From assembly GCA_051715425.1 (NCBI GenBank), contig JBPXJS010000011.1:132215-196214 (forward strand): a stretch of 64,000 bases of DNA, read 5' to 3'. Below the pieces are notes generated by a model that was given only the letters and a program-made list of their open reading frames with translations, was not told the DNA's origin and did no database searches. Below, piece by piece: positions 3,016 through 63,613 of the stretch; within the stretch, counting starts at the first letter, position 1, and each line of letters begins with the position of its first letter. The position numbers and the translations under genes are program-made. This stretch comes from Bacteroidota bacterium (lineage in GTDB: Bacteria > Bacteroidota > Bacteroidia > UKL13-3).

Positions 3016-4383
3016 ATGAATAATTCAAATACATCTCTGCTCGACCGCATGAATAACTGGCTCCGGGAGTCGGTTATGGTCAAAGTAGTATCCATCGGGA
3101 TACTCGTTCTTATTTTACTTATTCCTAAAACATGGGTAAACTCCATTTTAGATGAAAGGGAGTGGCGTGCTTCAGAAGCTATCAATGAGGTTTCGCAAAA
3201 ATGGTCGGGCACACAGAACTTAACAGGTCCGGTGTTGGTAATACCTTATAAGAAAAAAGTGGTAAGGCAAATCACTACCGCTGATAAAAGGATTGTGGAG
3301 CGCATTGATACCACCATATCGGAAGCTTACTTTTTGCCGCATGAGCTAAATATAAAAGGAGAACTAAATCCACAGAACCTGCACCGGGGAATTTTTGATG
3401 TAGTGGTATACCATTCTTCTATCATGATGGATGGGTACTTTGAGAAACCCAATATAGAAGCCCTTGGTTTAAAAAATCAGGATATGTTATGGAGTGAGGC
3501 TTATCTGATTAACGGATTAAGTGATTTAAGGGGAATAGGAGAGAACCCTCAGATAAAATGGAACAACCAGGTTTATCATGCAGAACCTGTAAACAAAGAA
3601 GGCAATGAAGGGCTGTTCAACAAAAATATTGCAGTTAAGATAAAAATTAATCCGGAAGATAGTATGGTTCCATTCTCAACCTCCCTGTCGTTAAAAGGTA
3701 GCAGCCATTTGTATTTTTATCCCTTGGGGAAAACCACAAAGGTGAGCTTAAAAGGTACCTGGGGTAATCCAAGTTTTGATGGTTTTTATCTTCCCGAAAC
3801 AAGAAACGTAGATGCAGATCTTTTTTCTTCTACATGGAAAATACTCAGTTTTAACCGCCCTTTCCCGCAGCAATGGGCTGATCAGGTTTCAGGAGTGGAG
3901 GGTACGGCATTTGGGGTAAACCTCCTGATGCCGGTTGATCAATACCAAAAAAGTATCCGCACATCAAAGTATGGCATACTCATTATCGTACTCACTTTTG
4001 TATCTCTTTTATTAATGGAAATTATTGTAAAAATACGCATCCATCCTTTCCAATATACCCTCATTGGTGCTGCATTAATTATCTACTATACGCTGCTCCT
4101 TTCTTTCTCCGAACATATCGGATTTAACCTGGCTTATCTTATTTCCGCTGTGGCCGTGGTGGTATTAATCAGTTTATATTCTCTTACCTTTTTCAGGAAA
4201 ATAAAAGTTGCAGGCCTGCTCGCATTTTTACTTACCTTATTTTATGCATACATATTTGTGATTACCCAACAACAGGATTATGCCTTGCTGCTGGGTAGTA
4301 TTGGTTTGTTCCTCATTATTTCTGTTTTAATGTATGTATCAAGGAAAATAAACTGGTACGGACAATCACATCAACCCGAATAA
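3016..4383 (+). CDS. creD: cell envelope integrity inner-membrane protein CreD family
   Basis: 455 aa. N-terminal TM, periplasmic domain with the conserved LIPxxWVNSILDEREWRxxEAINEVSQKWSGxQNLTGPVLVIPY block, and a C-terminal cluster of TM helices typical of CreD. Confidence 0.75.
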   Translation: MNNSNTSLLDRMNNWLRESVMVKVVSIGILVLILLIPKTWVNSILDEREWRASEAINEVSQKWSGTQNLTGPVLVIPYKKKVVRQITTADKRIVERIDTTISEAYFLPHELNIKGELNPQNLHRGIFDVVVYHSSIMMDGYFEKPNIEALGLKNQDMLWSEAYLINGLSDLRGIGENPQIKWNNQVYHAEPVNKEGNEGLFNKNIAVKIKINPEDSMVPFSTSLSLKGSSHLYFYPLGKTTKVSLKGTWGNPSFDGFYLPETRNVDADLFSSTWKILSFNRPFPQQWADQVSGVEGTAFGVNLLMPVDQYQKSIRTSKYGILIIVLTFVSLLLMEIIVKIRIHPFQYTLIGAALIIYYTLLLSFSEHIGFNLAYLISAVAVVVLISLYSLTFFRKIKVAGLLAFLLTLFYAYIFVITQQQDYALLLGSIGLFLIISVLMYVSRKINWYGQSHQPE

Positions 4384-4390
4384 AAAACAA

Positions 4391-4436
4391 AGGGCAGGGT
4401 GATTATTGAATTCCCTGCCCTTCTCTATATTTTTAC
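4391..4436 (+). terminator. hairpin terminator after the creD-like gene
   Basis: agggcaggg...ccctgccct stem with a long loop, followed by a T-rich run. Confidence 0.45.
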
Positions 4437-4453
4437 TCTTTAATTAAACAATC

Positions 4454-4963
4454 ATGAAAGCAGCACAAGAAGTATATATTAAAAAAATCAGGCTATGGAT
4501 TTTGTTTTTTATTGTAGGTCTGGTATTAAGTGGTATAACAGCTTTTCCGCTAACTGCAGAACTAAAAGTGCTGGTGCAATACACCTCCTGGTTACCTGAA
4601 TCAATAGCCATATTTATTAAGCATGTTTATGAAGTTTTATTGTTGGTAGATACACAATATCCGTTTCTGGCTTATGGCACAGACTGGCTGGCTTTTGCTC
4701 ATATCGTTATTGCCATTGCTTTTTACGGGCCTTACAAAGATCCTGTTAAAAATATCTGGGTTATAGAATTTGGGATGATCAGTTGTGTGCTTATTATTCC
4801 GCTCGCATTCATCTGCGGACCCATCAGGCAAATCCCTTTTTACTGGCAACTCATTGATTGTTCTTTTGGGGTGTTCGGTATTTTGCCTTTGTATTATGTA
4901 CACAAACAAATTAAAAAACTAGAATTACTGATTCATCAGCAACAACACCATGAAGTTAACTGA
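4454..4963 (+). CDS. hypothetical membrane protein
   Basis: 169-aa ORF with 4 predicted TM helices. Overlaps the next ORF by 14 bp, suggesting an operon. Confidence 0.5.
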   Translation: MKAAQEVYIKKIRLWILFFIVGLVLSGITAFPLTAELKVLVQYTSWLPESIAIFIKHVYEVLLLVDTQYPFLAYGTDWLAFAHIVIAIAFYGPYKDPVKNIWVIEFGMISCVLIIPLAFICGPIRQIPFYWQLIDCSFGVFGILPLYYVHKQIKKLELLIHQQQHHEVN

Positions 4964-5648
4964 AAGGGGTATTTACCTGAATATATTACATGTTGTTGTT
5001 TTCAGCATCGCTATGGGGTTTCTGGAAACAGCAGTGGTGGTTTACCTGCGTAAAATATATTATCCGGAGGGTTTTTCTTTCCCTCTCAAACAGATGTCAA
5101 CCGATATTGTGATTACCGAATTGCTGCGTGAAGCGGCTACCATCGTTATGCTTCTGTATATTGGTTTTTTCTGCGGTAAAACATTTATACAACGGTTTGC
5201 TTTTTTTCTGCTGAGTTTTGCCGTATGGGATATTTTTTATTATGTATTTCTTAAACTGCTGCTCAATTGGCCACTCACTTTTTTTGAATGGGATATCCTG
5301 TTTCTTATTCCCTTACCCTGGCTTGGCCCGGTATTGGCCCCATGCATTATATCTGCTACCATGATATTGCTGGCGGTATTTATTCTCACTCAACAAAAAT
5401 GTCCGGTTAAACTGAAACATACAGATTGGTTGCTCTTGATTCTCGTAAGCTTATTATACATCTACACCTTTGTTAAAGATCAGTTTCATTTGCTTGAGCA
5501 AAAAAACGGGTCGGATATTTCGGGAGTGTATGTGCCTCAGTCCTTCGACTGGCCTTTTTTTATGATACCTCTTACCCTTTTTGCTCTTTGGTTTATTGTT
5601 TTTGTGAAACGGGAATTAAAACGGGAAACCAACACAGCGGTTGGATAA
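4950..5648 (+). CDS. hypothetical multi-pass membrane protein
   Basis: 232 aa and highly hydrophobic. Confidence 0.5.
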   Translation: MKLTERGIYLNILHVVVFSIAMGFLETAVVVYLRKIYYPEGFSFPLKQMSTDIVITELLREAATIVMLLYIGFFCGKTFIQRFAFFLLSFAVWDIFYYVFLKLLLNWPLTFFEWDILFLIPLPWLGPVLAPCIISATMILLAVFILTQQKCPVKLKHTDWLLLILVSLLYIYTFVKDQFHLLEQKNGSDISGVYVPQSFDWPFFMIPLTLFALWFIVFVKRELKRETNTAVG

Positions 5649-16483: not shown

Positions 16484-16787
16484 TCAAATATTTTTCTTAT
16501 TAGTACGCTGAGTTCTTTTTTAAATGGTGTACAACGGCAGACTCCCGCAATCATGCGGGACAAGTTGTGAAATAAGCTATCCACAGCCCTGTATGTAAAT
16601 GTTGGAATAAAACGTCACAAATGCAAGATAAAAAAGCATCACCTTAGATTGAAAACCATAAGAAATAACTGGAAAAGTCTTTCACCTAAAAAAGCAGCCG
16701 AAACTTCCCTGCATGTTGCTGGGCGGGCATCAAACATAGCTCAAATCGAAGTAAAACTTCGTTTGAACCTTATTTGTTGCAGTTTTG

Positions 16788-59619: not shown

Positions 59620-62241
59620 TCAGGTATTGTTTTGCTTGAATCCGATTGTTCTCGACTCGCTTTGAGCAGCGCTGAAATCTATCTTAAACTCTTCCACGTC
59701 TTCGAACTTTAATTCATGAATCATATCGGTATTGCGTTCAGATGGATCAAGTTTGGCCAAACGCAGGTGTTGATTTTTGATAGCCTCTTCAATTACCTTA
59801 CGCACATTTCTGGCGTTTCCAAAAAAACGGTTTCTGGTTTTATGTAAAAACTCCATGTACTCCCGCAAGTGTTTAGATGCTTTTTCCTCCGCTTTAATAC
59901 TGTTGTTTTCCAGCATTCTGATAGAAATATCAAACAACTGCTCTGAAGAATAATCCTGAAAAAGAAATTCGCGGTCGAAACGTGAGTGTAATCCGGGATT
60001 TGACTCGAGGAACCTGCGCATATTATCCGTATAGCCCGCAACAATCACCACAAATTCACCACGGCTGTCTTCCATTCTTTTGAGGATGGTTTCAATAGCT
60101 TCTTTCCCGTAATCATTTTCTCCACCTTCAGAAAGGGCATAGGCTTCGTCAATAAATAAAACGCCACCCATGGCTTTGTTTAATATTTCAGTGGTTTTAA
60201 GGGCTGTCTGGCCAACATATCCGCCCACCAAAGCCTGTCTGTCACATTCCACCAGGTTGCCCCGCTCAAGTATGCCCAATGCTTTGTATACCTGAGCCAG
60301 CAAACGCGCAACTGTTGTTTTTCCTGTTCCGGGATTGCCAATAAATACAGAATGCAGGGAGAATGTTTGCCTGATATCTTTTCCAATTTCTTTATAAAAA
60401 CGTACCAGCTTCACCAGTTCATCAATTTCGTTTTTGATATTGCCAAGCCCGATCATTCCATGAAGTGCGTTGAGTGAAGACCGCAGCAACTCTTCATCTA
60501 CAGGAATATCTGCAATATTTCTGCTTTTTGCTCCAAAAATTTTCAGAATATCTTCAGAACTGATGGTTGATAGTTGCTCCTTGGAAAGATCTCCCGGATT
60601 GCCACCCTGCATAATGCGCAGCCCCATATTCATTTTACTTTCGTCAATAAGGGAGTTTACATAACGCGCGTTACCAAAGGTTTTATCGCGTTCCCTGTAT
60701 GAATCAACCAGCTTTTTATAAAGGGTATCTCTTGCATCTGCACTGAAAGATATGGCTCTTTTGGCTGCGGTATAATCGGCAATCTGCATCAGTTCCTGAG
60801 GGGTATAATCCGGAAACTCATAATGCATGCTAAAACGTGATTTTAAACCCGGATTTGACTCCAGAAAACTGTTCATCTCTTCCGGATAACCGGCAACAAT
60901 AATAGCCAAATCACCTTCACCGTCACTCATTTCCTTTAGCAGAATTTCTATTGCTTCTTTTCCGAAATCTTTAGAGTCGTCATTTTTACGGGCCAGTGCA
61001 TAAGCCTCATCAATAAAAAGAATTCCGCCCTTGGCTTTTTTTATCGCCTCTTTGGTTTTTGGAGCCGTTTGCCCGATATATTCTGCCACCAGATCTGAAC
61101 GGTCGGCTTCAATCACATGTCCTTTGCTTAATAAACCCAGTTCATGATAAATTTTACCCAGCATTTTGGCAACGGTGGTTTTACCTGTTCCGGGATTGCC
61201 TGTAAAAACGGCATGCAGGTTAATTTTATCTGTATCCTCAAACCCTTTTTCTTTGCGCAGCTTAATAAAATTAAGGTAAGTGGTATACTCCTTTACTTTT
61301 TTCTTGATGGAATCGAGGCCAATTAAATCATCCAGTTCCTTTAATACACCAGCTACGGTAGCATCATCAGCAGGTTTTGTTTTTTCAACAGGTTTAGCTT
61401 TTGCTTTAGGCTGCACAGGTCTTGATGTTTCTTTTTCATCAACAAAGGCTTCTCCCACTTCAAAAGGAATAGATGCAATAATCTGATCCATAAATACCGC
61501 ATCCACAGAGTAAATATCGTTCCCCCAGGTTCCTTTCTGGTCAGCTCCCCATCCAATACTGCATTCAAAGCTGGTATCTGTGCCGTTTACAAAAAATATT
61601 TTATCAATGGAGCCCTTTAACTGCCCGCTATGTGTGCGGAAATTAAAAAACATTTCACAGGCCCAGCTTTCCTTATTCTTCAGCAGGTTTTCTGCGTTTA
61701 CTTCTACCCATACATAACGGGTTTCCCGGCCCTCAAAAGAAACAAGGTATTTACGATCCTTACGTGGCACATTAGAGTCGGGGCCCTCATACAAACGTAC
61801 CGATTGCAGCGTAAAATAAGGGTTGCTGGTATCCGTAACTACTCCCTGCTCTTCAATATAAAATACTTTTTCTGCCACAAAAACATTGTCAATCCAGGCC
61901 TCCCAGCGGTAGTTGCCAGGTTTCCAGTATGCTCCGGGGGTTTTTACTCCCCACCCTTCACGCACATAAACAATATTCTCGTCTTTGCGGATAGACCGGT
62001 CGGCCACCAGGTTACAAATTTCGCTGCCATCAATATTGTTTACACATTTGAGGTTTATACGCACGTCCCAGTCTTCTTCATCAAACAGTTTGTTGAAGAA
62101 GGAAAGCTCACAATATATAAAGGTACATTCGGCTTCATCGTACACCAGCCGGTATTTCTTTTCATTATTGGCCAGCCATTCAGTGGAACCGAAAACTTTC
62201 AGGTCCCTGAATTTATAGTGGGTTGGTTTTTCTTTGGCCAT
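59620..62241 (-). CDS. AAA+ ATPase with two CbbX/SpoVK-type modules and a ~280-aa N-terminal domain of unknown function
   Basis: Two Walker A motifs (GNPGTGKTTVAKML and GNPGTGKTTVARLL), each followed by Walker B (ILFIDEAY/VLFIDEAY). Confidence 0.8.
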   Translation of the reverse strand: MAKEKPTHYKFRDLKVFGSTEWLANNEKKYRLVYDEAECTFIYCELSFFNKLFDEEDWDVRINLKCVNNIDGSEICNLVADRSIRKDENIVYVREGWGVKTPGAYWKPGNYRWEAWIDNVFVAEKVFYIEEQGVVTDTSNPYFTLQSVRLYEGPDSNVPRKDRKYLVSFEGRETRYVWVEVNAENLLKNKESWACEMFFNFRTHSGQLKGSIDKIFFVNGTDTSFECSIGWGADQKGTWGNDIYSVDAVFMDQIIASIPFEVGEAFVDEKETSRPVQPKAKAKPVEKTKPADDATVAGVLKELDDLIGLDSIKKKVKEYTTYLNFIKLRKEKGFEDTDKINLHAVFTGNPGTGKTTVAKMLGKIYHELGLLSKGHVIEADRSDLVAEYIGQTAPKTKEAIKKAKGGILFIDEAYALARKNDDSKDFGKEAIEILLKEMSDGEGDLAIIVAGYPEEMNSFLESNPGLKSRFSMHYEFPDYTPQELMQIADYTAAKRAISFSADARDTLYKKLVDSYRERDKTFGNARYVNSLIDESKMNMGLRIMQGGNPGDLSKEQLSTISSEDILKIFGAKSRNIADIPVDEELLRSSLNALHGMIGLGNIKNEIDELVKLVRFYKEIGKDIRQTFSLHSVFIGNPGTGKTTVARLLAQVYKALGILERGNLVECDRQALVGGYVGQTALKTTEILNKAMGGVLFIDEAYALSEGGENDYGKEAIETILKRMEDSRGEFVVIVAGYTDNMRRFLESNPGLHSRFDREFLFQDYSSEQLFDISIRMLENNSIKAEEKASKHLREYMEFLHKTRNRFFGNARNVRKVIEEAIKNQHLRLAKLDPSERNTDMIHELKFEDVEEFKIDFSAAQSESRTIGFKQNNT

Positions 62242-62462
62242 AGTTTAACGTTTAAATAGATTACGTTGCTAATTTCTTATAAGATTCAGTAATTTTAGCG
62301 TTGGTTTCTAATCAGAACGTAAAATTCATGTTTTCAAACGTATATGTTTTGCACAATTTAAACTAGCTTTTAAGCACTTGTATAAAAAAGTAAAAAAGAC
62401 ATTTAATTTTCTTGCGTTTTTCAGGTAAACACATAGCTTTGCAGTCCCTTCAAAAAAACAAA

Positions 62463-62552
62463 GGAGAGATGGGTGAGTGGCTGAAACCACCGGTTTGCTA
62501 AACCGACATACGCTGTTTAGGTGTATCGAGGGTTCGAATCCCTCTCTCTCCG
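62463..62552 (+). tRNA. tRNA-Ser (anticodon GCU)
   Basis: Manual fold: acceptor GGAGAGA/TCTCTCC, anticodon loop uuGCUaa, long variable arm, T-arm GAGGG-TTCGAAT-CCCTC. Confidence 0.8.
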
Positions 62553-62585
62553 CGTAATTTTCAGGGATATACGCAAAACGTATAT

Positions 62586-62659
62586 TACGGGGTGTAGCGT
62601 AGCCTGGTATCGCGCCACATTTGGGATGTGGAGGTCGTAGGTTCGAATCCTGCCACCCC
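62586..62659 (+). tRNA. tRNA-Pro (anticodon UGG)
   Basis: Manual fold: acceptor CGGGGTG/CACCCCG, anticodon stem CCACA/TGTGG with loop uuUGGga, T-arm GTAGG-TTCGAAT-CCTGC, discriminator A. Confidence 0.8.
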
Positions 62660-62700
62660 GACAAAAGAAGGTTGTTCTCGCAGTTTGCGGGACTGACACC

Positions 62701-62733
62701 TAAAAAAGCCTGACTTAAGAGTCAGGCTTTTTT
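62701..62733 (+). terminator. rho-independent terminator after tRNA-Pro
   Basis: gcctgact-taag-agtcaggc followed by TTTTTTT. Confidence 0.7.
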
Positions 62734-62734
62734 T

Positions 62735-62980
62735 ATGATGTATCAGGTATATATCTTATATAGCTCAAAACTGGATAAATATTATGTTGGATTTACGGTA
62801 GATATCAATCACCGTTTGGTTCAGCACAATGCCGGAATAAGTACGTTTACATCGCGGGGCATTCCCTGGGTATTGGTGCATTGCTTTGAAGTTGCAACAG
62901 AACATGAGGCGAGGTTACTTGAGAAAACGATAAAAGGTCGCGGTATAAAAAGGTATCTCAATGACAAAGGAATTAAATAA
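62735..62980 (+). CDS. GIY-YIG nuclease-domain small protein
   Basis: 81 aa with YxVYILxS...YYVGFT...R..QHN and E....RE...K motifs of the GIY-YIG fold. Confidence 0.7.
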   Translation: MMYQVYILYSSKLDKYYVGFTVDINHRLVQHNAGISTFTSRGIPWVLVHCFEVATEHEARLLEKTIKGRGIKRYLNDKGIK

Positions 62981-62984
62981 AGGG

Positions 62985-63068
62985 ATGTGGAGGTCGTATC
63001 CCGCATGCTGCGGGACTGCCACCCCGACAAAAGAAGGTTGTTCTCGCAGTTTGCGGGACTGCCACCCA
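62985..63068 (+). repeat. direct repeat of tRNA-Pro 3' end plus downstream flank
   Basis: gatgtggaggtcgta...gcgggactgccaccccgacaaaagaaggttgttctcgcagtttgcgggactgccaccc duplicates 62625–62700 (tRNA-Pro 3' half and the following ~40 bp). Confidence 0.75.
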
Positions 63069-63219
63069 AAAAGAGGCTGTCTCAAAAGGTGAAACAGCCT
63101 CTTTTTTATTTGGAGGGGTATCTGAGAAAAAATCTTTTATTCAATTCTAAAGCCCTTCAATTTGACTTTTGAGACAGCCTCTTTTTGTTTATCTGATTCC
63201 GAAAAAAATCACATGAAAG

Positions 63220-63372
63220 AATTTCGTGAAAATTCACGGAAGTCTTCTCAATTAAGTTAATCTGTGCAATCTCATGCCTTCGGCTTGACAAGTGTGGCAA
63301 TCCAACGCAAGTCATCTCAAAAAATCATTCGTGCGAATTTCATGCCTTTGGCTTGACAGGCGTGGCTTTAAT
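63220..63372. repeat. two 'E' repeat units (third locus)
   Basis: ggaagtcttctcaa...ctcatgccttcggcttgacaagtgtggc and gcaagtcatctcaa...aatttcatgcctttggcttgacaggcgtggc. Confidence 0.8.
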
Positions 63373-63376
63373 GGCA

Positions 63377-63613
63377 TTAATAGAGTCTGTCTAATGCTTC
63401 CGCGAGTTTTCTGTCTTTATCGGTAATGGTATTGCCTGCATCGTGTGTGCATAAAGAAACGTGCACCTTATTATACACATTGCTCCACTCCGGGTGGTGG
63501 TTCATTTTTTCAATAATAAATGCGGCTTTTACCATCCATGCAAGCGCATCTGTAAAGGTGTTAAATACAAAGGTTTTTTGTAGTTTGTTATTTTCTTCTT
63601 TCCAGGTATCCAT
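63377..63613 (-). CDS. phhB: 4a-hydroxytetrahydrobiopterin dehydratase (PCD/DCoH)
   Basis: 78 aa with the conserved (E/D)xxxHHPxWxNxYNxVxVxLxTHD motif. Confidence 0.8.
   Translation of the reverse strand: MDTWKEENNKLQKTFVFNTFTDALAWMVKAAFIIEKMNHHPEWSNVYNKVHVSLCTHDAGNTITDKDRKLAEALDRLY

Follow-up and report, generated by a model that had tools for sequence, protein, structure and literature searches.

A minimal GIY-YIG nuclease gene between a tRNA-Pro gene and its hairpin-bearing partial copy: a putative SegB-like cassette targeted to tRNA genes

We analysed a stretch of 64,000 nucleotides from a Bacteroidota bacterium (contig JBPXJS010000011.1), called here the window; all coordinates follow its numbering, and numbers preceded by L designate related loci retrieved for comparison. 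Near its end, a gene for a GIY-YIG protein of 81 amino acids stands between a transfer RNA gene, tRNA-Pro(UGG), and a partial copy of this gene (a pseudo-tRNA-Pro) in which one arm has been replaced by a GC-rich hairpin. We propose that this is a free-standing selfish cassette of about 0.35 kb, targeted to tRNA genes and residing inside a tRNA transcription unit, in the manner of the segB gene of phage T4; we put the probability of this interpretation at roughly 60%. A sequence-only reading of the same DNA had left the choice between a minimal mobile GIY-YIG element and the remnant of a larger integrated element. It is the former which is favoured by the existence of empty and occupied sites and by the linkage of the whole family to tRNA genes.

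All the components named in that reading (tRNA-Pro, terminator, open reading frame (ORF) of 81 codons and repeat) are present, with coordinates shifted by 2-4 nt: the tRNA-Pro gene, for instance, lies at 62588-62661/2 and not at 62586-62659. The repeat consists of two blocks. The first, 17 nt long and 100% identical (62623-62639 and 62982-62998, repeat D5), has no further copy in the 64 kb, and none of 100 shuffled sequences gave two matches; the second is 57 nt long and 96% identical (62650-62706 and 63016-63072, repeat D1). According to the shuffle test these repeats are far beyond chance expectation, and they bound a unit of 366 bp. The pseudo-tRNA-Pro begins 1 nt past the stop codon of the GIY-YIG gene. 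Its first 17 nt and its last 12 nt are identical to the tRNA, and the T-loop segment GGTTCGAATC of the tRNA is exchanged in it for the 17-nt GC hairpin TCCCGCATGCTGCGGGA (62999-63015). The repeat had been described as reproducing the 3' segment of tRNA-Pro: the copy does exist, but without the T-loop, and most of the 57-nt block is not tRNA, as only its first 12 nt belong to it and the remainder is trailer. This trailer is itself a degenerate third copy of the pseudo-tRNA/hairpin unit (repeat family D2: 62676-62701, 62999-63024 and 63042-63067). When the window is compared to L096 and L097, one finds an indel of 42 nt (62662-62703): the unit AAAGAAGGTTGTTCTCGCAGTTTGCGGGACTGACACCTAAAA, which follows tRNA-Pro in the window, is absent from these relatives although their GIY-YIG protein is 94% identical to that of the window. 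The 42-nt unit is bounded by runs of A and has a second copy after the pseudo-tRNA; it points either to mobility on a small scale or to gene conversion between its two copies. The RNA fold of 62975-63112 has a strongly negative z-score. Its minimum free energy structure pairs the two repeated hairpin units with each other, and says nothing on function.

The duplication had been taken as the mark of an insertion, and the comparison of orthologous loci supports this: the gene and the pseudo-tRNA appear to be gained or lost together, as one block of DNA. Seven genome loci carrying the closest relatives of the gene share the order of the window (AAA-ATPase, tRNA-Ser, tRNA-Pro, GIY-YIG). A scan of metagenomes with the N-terminus of the neighbouring AAA-ATPase gave 57 loci, and a locus was counted as empty when the AAA-ATPase, tRNA-Ser and tRNA-Pro were present, at least 500 bp were readable downstream and no GIY-YIG gene was found. 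In the 21 empty loci there is neither a GIY-YIG gene nor a pseudo-Pro unit: tRNA-Pro is followed by a terminator. By comparison, every one of the 13 loci which have an intact GIY-YIG gene after tRNA-Pro and a readable downstream region (the window, L001-5, L037, L041, L090 and L096-99) contains one to five hairpin-bearing pseudo-Pro units, and all the pseudo-Pro copies listed from these loci have their T-loop replaced by a hairpin. The hairpin of the window is kept in L096, L097 and L099, and other hairpin sequences are found in L001-L005, L037, L041 and L090. The tRNA-Pro gene is the same in occupied and empty loci, except at position 57, for a C/T in the D-loop and for a T/C in the variable region. 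In the tree built from the host ATPase, empty loci are interleaved with occupied ones.

Several observations were made on these loci in passing. On the reverse strand of L041 (about 1650-2600), three tandem units, each made of terminator, GIY-YIG gene and pseudo-tRNA-Pro, follow a single tRNA-Pro; the third of the GIY-YIG ORFs has a premature stop, and the trailer past the last pseudo-tRNA is similar, by eye, to the trailer which directly follows tRNA-Pro in the empty locus L056. The T-loop reads TTCGAAT (G57) in every locus with an intact cassette, including the window (position 62644), and TTCAAAT (A57) is limited to empty loci and to L009, whose GIY-YIG gene is truncated and lacks a pseudo-tRNA. 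A57 could be a resistant or a naive target allele, or mere phylogeny; the numbers in this comparison (L039, L040, L042, L046/47, L056 and L009) are too small to decide. L005 (3806-3850) and L009 (3812-3850) contain 5' halves of pseudo-tRNA-Pro with a D-loop hairpin, between tRNA-Ser and tRNA-Pro, i.e. upstream of the real tRNA-Pro; both loci also carry a downstream GIY-YIG gene. Finally, L067 carries on its reverse strand (about 2100-2480) a more distant GIY-YIG gene, which comes two genes downstream from the same tRNA-Ser/tRNA-Pro pair and is flanked by a real tRNA-Arg and by a pseudo-tRNA-Arg(UCU) whose D-arm/anticodon region is replaced by the long GC hairpin GCCTGCCTGCCGAGG...GCGGCAGGCAGGG.

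Other copies of the GIY-YIG gene beside tRNA genes had been suggested as something to look for, and the relatives are indeed almost always adjacent to a tRNA, with a similar partial duplication. We examined 38 genome loci encoding relatives, retrieved with an alignment of 10 sequences. A tRNA gene lies within 500 bp on the same strand in 30 of them, mostly within about 120 bp of the gene. As for the other eight, six have pseudo-tRNAs or are contig ends flanked by pseudo-tRNAs, one lies in a 16S ribosomal RNA (rRNA) gene, and one was left unassigned; in all, 36-37 of the 38 have a tRNA or pseudo-tRNA neighbour on the same strand. The hosts belong to Flavobacteriaceae, Chitinophagaceae, Sphingobacteriaceae, Bacteroidales, Ignavibacteriota and three lineages of the candidate phyla radiation (CPR), and cultured strains such as Muriicola marianensis CGMCC 1.12606, Robiginitalea marina 2V75 and Formosa sp. 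S-31 are among the carriers; the partner tRNAs are Pro-UGG, Pro-GGG, Ser-GGA, Ser-CGA, Ser-GCU, Val, Asp, His, Ala-GGC and Met, to which L067, from the orthologue set, adds Arg(UCU) as an eleventh. The GIY-YIG gene always has a full tRNA on one side and an incomplete copy of that tRNA on the other: with the tRNA upstream, the order is tRNA, terminator, ORF and 3' part of the pseudo-tRNA; with the tRNA downstream, it is promoter, 5' part of the pseudo-tRNA, ORF and tRNA. The pseudo-tRNAs follow the local tRNA at the positions which vary between genomes (L033 versus L036). The ORF is 0-5 nt from the pseudo-tRNA, a minimal unit which we met in more than 30 loci. Tandem arrays occur frequently (L011, L015, L016, L017, L041 with three units, L090 and L099), as are tandem pseudo-tRNA units (L001, L004, L006 with five, and L015). 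Flavobacteriales and Flavipsychrobacter share the Pro-GGG type; in CPR, closely related genes occupy Asp, Ser and 16S targets.

The same context can be read in databases of proteins. In a family sample of 180 proteins, 25 of the 59 ORFs called too long at the N-terminus contain peptides derived from the T-arm of a tRNA. Many of the database ORFs (P0012, P0020, P0032-P0180) carry N- or C-terminal extensions which are translated tRNA or pseudo-tRNA, for example ...GGSNPLAPT, ...RFESxHP, MWRS... and GPIAHSVRATDS; these extensions are an annotation artefact which betrays the genomic context. Two unusual loci may be added. In L022, a metagenome-assembled genome of CPR Moranbacteria, a minimal GIY-YIG ORF (4001-4261) lies in a helix-6 insertion of the 16S rRNA gene (3899-5160), the insertion being closed by the inverted repeat CGCCACACCATTCAGC / GCTGAATGGTGTGGCG. 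In L014 (880-1290, Mucilaginibacter), a truncated 3' half of tRNA-Ala is upstream of the GIY-YIG gene and a hairpin-bearing pseudo-tRNA-Ala downstream; no intact tRNA was detected in this locus, which may be a displaced or orphaned cassette.

The 3' ends of tRNA genes are the usual attachment (att) sites of integrative elements. As the direct repeats of the window do include a tRNA 3' end, the sequence-only reading had seen in them a classical att scar: the locus would be what is left of a larger integrase-mediated island in the 3' end of tRNA-Pro, bounded by attL and attR, with the GIY-YIG gene as its last cargo. We hardly believe in this possibility. The repeat-bounded unit of 366 bp holds the nuclease gene alone; no recombinase ORF lies between or beside the repeats; the minimal unit, often tandem, recurs in more than 30 loci and at eleven tRNA species; in half of the types it is the 5' part of the tRNA that is duplicated, which is unusual for integrases; and the direct repeats include tRNA positions 36-52 and 62-74 with the T-loop replaced, as it is in every listed pseudo-Pro copy.

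One might also suppose that DNA close to tRNA genes is simply prone to duplication and rearrangement, and that an ordinary small host gene happens to be there, without any functional link to the copies. Tandem duplications are indeed frequent around the locus (L041, L017, L090), and the 42-nt unit comes and goes between close relatives. Yet the co-occurrence of gene and pseudo-tRNA is perfect over some 34 orthologous loci, the same architecture is found at eleven tRNAs and in three phyla, the junctions between ORF and pseudo-tRNA are tight and the hairpins are enriched 27-fold, as described below; a passive by-product is thus very improbable.

The pseudo-tRNAs which we examined in detail have all exchanged one arm or more for a GC-rich hairpin. 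Most of these hairpins are of the form 5'-TC(C/A)CG...CG(G/T)GA-3', often 17 nt long and replacing an arm of 17 nt, and always with the C-rich arm first. The Pro-UGG type has its T-loop replaced, whereas in the Pro-GGG, Val, Asp and Ala types the exchange affects the anticodon arm; in some the D-loop is replaced as well. Over about 310 kb of loci plus the window, the density of TC-stem-loop-stem-GA hairpins is 1.18/kb within 700 bp of GIY-YIG genes and 0.043/kb elsewhere, i.e. 27-fold lower. In the Pro-UGG lineage, 98.6% of the stem cells are paired, with one covarying pair, and the loop is free to vary. In related CPR genes at Asp, Ser-GGA and Ser-GCU, one and the same double hairpin immediately precedes the ORF, next to a fragment of the local tRNA. 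The motif has a sole other instance in the window, the hairpin TCCCGCAATCATGCGGGA (16543-16560), located between two minus-strand ORFs and far from tRNA and GIY-YIG genes. With this single instance and the 27-fold lower density away from GIY-YIG genes, we rejected the idea of a dispersed repeat akin to repetitive extragenic palindromes. We also rejected the idea that the hairpins are tRNA arms "perfected" by template switching at quasi-palindromes, since their stems are mostly unrelated to the arms replaced. Another kind of copy, at 3600-3686 of L026, is a pseudo-tRNA-Ala of full length whose promoter region is duplicated too; its anticodon arm alone is replaced, by GCCCCGAAAACTTTCGGGG, and ARAGORN reports it as a tRNA-Gly(GCC). 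Transcription, processing and, with G3-U70 kept, even charging of this copy are conceivable, though it could not decode.

One conceivable explanation of this systematic replacement of tRNA arms by GC hairpins of the same length, speculative and in our opinion rather improbable, is that the hairpin pseudo-tRNA is a specificity module: TCCCG...CGGGA would be the binding or cleavage site of the nuclease, and the flanking tRNA-identical segments (12-28 nt, always matching the local tRNA) would be the address directing insertion at the cognate tRNA. It is suggested by the double hairpin shared between CPR genes, by the loss of all the T-loops in the pseudo-Pro copies listed and by the constant order of the arms, C-rich first. 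If true, it would define a new class of minimal mobile elements, composed of a structure-specific nuclease of about 80 residues and of a tRNA-mimicking "address label" in DNA or RNA, distinct both from homing endonucleases and from elements driven by a recombinase or a transposase.

We now turn to the protein. The ORF product matches PF01541 over residues 2-69 (E=5e-12, 46.3 bits for a cut-off of 22.6), its sole Pfam domain; searches of Pfam, NCBIfam and PHROG found no second or accessory domain in the 81 residues, NCBIfam, PHROGs and PADLOC gave no informative match for the protein, and no PADLOC defence model matched below E=0.01. Across 28 homologues, Y6, S10, Y17, G19 and W45 are invariant, and R27, H31, N32 and E63 are conserved at 90% or more; by analogy with I-TevI, we take Y6, Y17, R27 and E63 to be catalytic. 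In the same homologues a near-invariant TSRGIPW motif distinguishes the tRNA-linked subfamily. The family counts 4,050 clusters at 50% identity (E<=1e-10). The AlphaFold model (predicted local distance difference test score 94.4) shows the fold of the GIY-YIG domain, a three-stranded sheet with helices, in the order E-E-H-E-H-H. Its best Foldseek matches are 1ZG2 (BH0048 of UPF0213) and Slx1 nuclease domains, with template modelling (TM) scores of 0.61-0.70, I-TevI (TM 0.43) and UvrC being matched much more weakly. A profile search against the PDB gave 1ZG2 (1.2e-10), 1YWL (4.7e-8) and SLX1 (3.6e-4). The "homing-endonuclease-type" domain of the sequence-only reading is therefore a GIY-YIG domain, but of the stand-alone Slx1/UPF0213 branch and without a DNA-binding domain. 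The ratio of nonsynonymous to synonymous substitution rates is 0.13 between the window and L097, and ranges pairwise from 0.10 to 0.32 within the Pro-UGG lineage; the gene is under purifying selection and maintained. In our reading the ORF encodes a presumably active, minimal nuclease of the Slx1/UPF0213 type, reduced to its catalytic domain.

How would such a cassette work? The closest characterised case is SegB of phage T4, a GIY-YIG homing endonuclease whose gene lies within a cluster of tRNA genes, is transcribed only within the tRNA precursor and is kept low in level; its recognition motif is GGTTCRANTCC, in the T-arm, and cleavage takes place at the 3' end of tRNA genes, those of T4 itself not being protected (PMC2330249). 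We were led to the SegB-like cassette because the ORF of the window has no promoter of its own and comes right after the tRNA terminator, and because the T-arm motif is gone from the copy. The sole promoter-like element upstream of the cassette is TAGCTTTG, ahead of tRNA-Ser. Between terminator and ATG we found no promoter-like motif except one weak match (9/12) which overlaps the terminator. Terminator 1 is a perfect inverted repeat of 14 bp (62702-62715/62720-62733) whose T run abuts the ATG; the start codon following it directly, the ORF can be reached by read-through only. Nuclease activity, cleavage target, copying of the cassette and role of the hairpins are all part of the scenario we infer. 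Read-through of the tRNA terminator would produce the nuclease at a low level; the nuclease would break the DNA of tRNA genes, in the Pro type in or near the T-arm and 3' end, the segment missing from the dead copy; recombinational repair, using the conserved tRNA sequence as homology, would then install the cassette. The partial duplication of the tRNA would preserve one intact, functional tRNA gene, and the exchange of an arm for a GC hairpin would leave a copy which no longer is a tRNA, does not form a long direct repeat without interruption, and is probably no substrate of the nuclease.

A number of facts weigh against this scenario. First, the protein has no DNA-binding module (NUMOD, helix-turn-helix or zinc finger) beyond its catalytic domain, and its fold is nearest to the structure-specific Slx1 (TM about 0.7) and not to the sequence-specific I-TevI (TM 0.43); for these two reasons the choice of a particular tRNA gene is left unexplained. 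Second, the Val, Ala and Ser pseudo-tRNAs keep their T-arm and lack the anticodon arm or the D-loop, and we had to reject the removal of the T-loop as a general rule. Third, the intact tRNA keeps any site which the nuclease may use, and self-cleavage is not avoided; the same holds for SegB, which relies on low expression. Fourth, we found no relatives in IMG/VR viral contigs, in GenBank phages or in PLSDB plasmids, i.e. no vehicle. Fifth, the tree of the GIY-YIG proteins is roughly congruent with the host tree in the Pro-UGG lineage, and the synonymous divergence between the window and L097 is alike for the GIY-YIG gene (0.25) and for the neighbouring pterin dehydratase gene (0.18). Because of this congruence and of these similar divergences, the patchy distribution could as well come from one old insertion followed by repeated losses through recombination between the direct repeats, and the presence/absence data do not prove recent mobility in the Pro-UGG lineage. 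Lastly, the terminator of the empty site L039 resembles the proximal terminator of the window, whereas in L041 and L056 it is the distal trailer that is the original one; owing to this disagreement, the part which constitutes the mobile "element" is ambiguous.

Another interpretation places the function at the level of RNA. The nuclease and the transcript of the hairpin pseudo-tRNA would form a two-component system, inherited vertically and not selfish DNA: possibly a pair similar to type III toxin-antitoxin (TA) systems, a decoy tRNA unable to decode, or a factor for the processing or quality control of the neighbouring tRNA. The partial tRNA copies would have come from local tandem duplication, followed by selection on the RNA. 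In ToxIN-type systems a terminator stands between the RNA and the toxin gene, and here also a terminator separates the RNA gene or genes from the ORF, the ATG of which abuts the T run as in type III TA loci; the pseudo-tRNA units are sometimes tandem, but they are not uniform and occur both before and after the gene. The tandem arrays of pseudo-tRNAs described above, the length-matched exchanges (17 nt for 17 nt), the pseudo-tRNA-Ala of L026 with its duplicated promoter region, the tolerance of G-U pairs in the hairpin, and the purifying selection on a gene inherited roughly vertically are all in agreement with a role of the RNA, and a fusion of an Slx1-like domain with TrmH hints at RNA metabolism (Dunin-Horkawicz et al., PMC1564403). 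The characterised GIY-YIG enzymes, however, are only known to act on DNA (PMC1564403); most of the pseudo-tRNAs are fragments which begin or end at the ORF boundary and miss one acceptor strand; no defence model of PADLOC matches; gene and pseudo-tRNA come and go as a block of DNA at orthologous sites; and one relative sits in a 16S rRNA insertion, as selfish ORFs do. On balance we judge an RNA-level system to be unlikely, though it deserves to be kept in mind, and we retain the tRNA-targeted cassette as the preferred interpretation.

The features of the locus are collected in the table below. The motif TATATTTGCA, of the type found ahead of tRNA-Ser, also precedes tRNAs and pseudo-tRNAs of L007, L008, L012 and L033; TAnnTTTG is the promoter consensus which we assume for Bacteroidota, and on this basis TAGCTTTG was read as a -7 element. 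The T-loop of tRNA-Pro in the window is TTCGAAT (G57). The same spacer of 5 nt separates tRNA-Pro from the first 35-nt trailer unit "b" and the pseudo-tRNA-Pro from the second. Terminator 2 is the inverted repeat I2 (17 nt at 94%) and is also formed in the RNA fold. Neither terminator was flagged by the consensus terminator scan, in which the A/T runs were absorbed into the stem, and we used the output of the inverted-repeat search instead. The "E" repeats which the sequence-only reading saw beyond the cassette are not supported as a family: "E" is the inverted repeat I1 (22 nt, 100%, arms 63067-63088/63166-63187, 77 nt apart), the left arm coincides with the 5' half of terminator 2, and there are only two weak matches elsewhere in the window. 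The DNA between the arms of I1 is not conserved in L096 and L097. In 62200-63500, the E-value scan of Rfam gave the two tRNAs alone, other matches being sub-threshold, due to chance and terminator-like, and no Rfam family spans the pseudo-tRNA/hairpin units. Further on, past the downstream end of the pterin-4a-carbinolamine dehydratase gene, the intergenic sequence 63200-63376 shows good conservation in L096 and L097, better than the DNA immediately after the cassette; it holds an internal repeat of about 68 nt (63268-63298 / 63336-63366, 87%) with no Rfam match at threshold.

Table. Features of the tRNA-Ser/tRNA-Pro locus and of the putative cassette, in the numbering of the window
Feature	Position	Strand	Basis or remark
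AAA-ATPase gene	59620-62241	-	precedes tRNA-Ser/tRNA-Pro
Putative promoter -7 element TAGCTTTG of the tRNA-Ser/tRNA-Pro unit, Bacteroidota TAnnTTTG type	62434..62441	+	sequence inspection
tRNA-Ser(GCU), first gene of the transcription unit	62463..62553	+	ARAGORN; Rfam tRNA, 56 bits
Intact tRNA-Pro(UGG), presumed target or anchor of the cassette	62588..62661 (end 62661/2)	+	ARAGORN; Rfam tRNA, 66 bits, full model
Trailer unit "b", degenerate 3' unit of pseudo-tRNA-Pro with hairpin TCTCGCAGTTTGCGGGA	62667..62701	+	repeat family D2
Intrinsic terminator of the tRNA operon (terminator 1), stem AAAAAAGCCTGACT/AGTCAGGCTTTTTT and T run	62702..62734	+	inverted repeat I3
Gene for the 81-residue stand-alone GIY-YIG nuclease (predicted), Slx1/UPF0213 branch	62735..62980	+	Pfam PF01541
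3' part of pseudo-tRNA-Pro (tRNA positions 36-74)	62982..63027	+	repeats D5 and D1; pairwise alignment to the tRNA
Second copy of trailer unit "b", hairpin TCTCGCAGTTTGCGGGA	63033..63067	+	repeats D1/D2
Second intrinsic terminator (terminator 2), AAAAAGAGGCTGTCTCA / TGAAACAGCCTCTTTTT and T run, closing the cassette	63068..63109	+	inverted repeat I2
Distal perfect inverted copy of the left arm of terminator 2	63166..63187	-	inverted repeat I1; membership of the cassette uncertain

These results give a testable role to the stand-alone Slx1-like/UPF0213 proteins, whose function has been unknown since at least 2006 (PMC1564403), and tie a large subfamily (thousands of clusters at 50% identity, in Bacteroidota, Ignavibacteriota and CPR) to tRNA genes and occasionally to rRNA genes. 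If confirmed, the cassette, with some 350 bp, would be smaller than any other self-contained selfish DNA element described so far in bacterial chromosomes, and would be a chromosomal counterpart of the SegB/F-Tfl system of phages. The replacement of arms by hairpins could reveal how a nuclease reduced to its domain finds its target. There is also a consequence for annotation: tRNA finders miscall hairpin pseudo-tRNAs, as in L026, and contigs often break at the repeats of cassettes.

Finally, we compared the cassette with known systems. In the searchable literature, outside of which subscription journals mostly remain, we found no description of chromosomal, tRNA-linked minimal GIY-YIG cassettes, of their tRNA duplications or of hairpin pseudo-tRNAs, and no report on a tRNA linkage of UPF0213; the architecture is apparently undescribed. 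The protein itself is closest in sequence and structure to the Slx1-like/UPF0213 proteins (YhbQ, BH0048 1ZG2, EF2693 1YWL), which are also minimal domains without accessories; the tRNA-linked subfamily differs from them by the TSRGIPW motif and the fixed genomic context. GIY-YIG ORFs have been described in non-intron insertions of CPR rRNA genes (Tsurumaki et al. 2024, PMC11270868), and the close relative in the helix-6 insertion of L022 is just such a minimal ORF parasitising the gene of a structured RNA. That work concerns rRNA only, with no mention of tRNA genes, partial duplications or hairpin-swapped pseudo-tRNAs.

Phages and integrative and conjugative elements which use tRNA genes through their attP site resemble the cassette by their insertion at a tRNA and by the intact tRNA and displaced partial copy which they leave as direct repeats. 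They differ from it in that the cassette has no tyrosine or serine recombinase, measures 366 bp, can duplicate the 5' part of the tRNA as well as the 3' part and always carries an arm-to-hairpin exchange in the displaced copy. The cassette resembles type III TA systems of the ToxIN kind in its succession of structured RNA repeats, terminator and small nuclease gene on one strand, but the fold is GIY-YIG and not that of ToxN/AbiQ/CptN, the repeats are derived from a tRNA and the RNA units can precede or follow the gene. SegB, for its part, is phage-borne, has about 220 residues with a NUMOD3 DNA-binding part, and lacks flanking partial tRNA duplicates and hairpin-substituted pseudo-tRNAs; the protein of the window is chromosomal, reduced to 81 residues and to the catalytic domain, and belongs to the Slx1/UPF0213 branch and not to that of I-TevI, so that it is no member of the SegB protein family. 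What the cassette has in common with SegB and with F-Tfl of phage T5 is a GIY-YIG gene embedded in a tRNA transcription unit and a patchy presence between related genomes; with SegB there is one likeness more, as the recognised motif GGTTCRANTCC is exactly the segment replaced in the pseudo-tRNA of the window.

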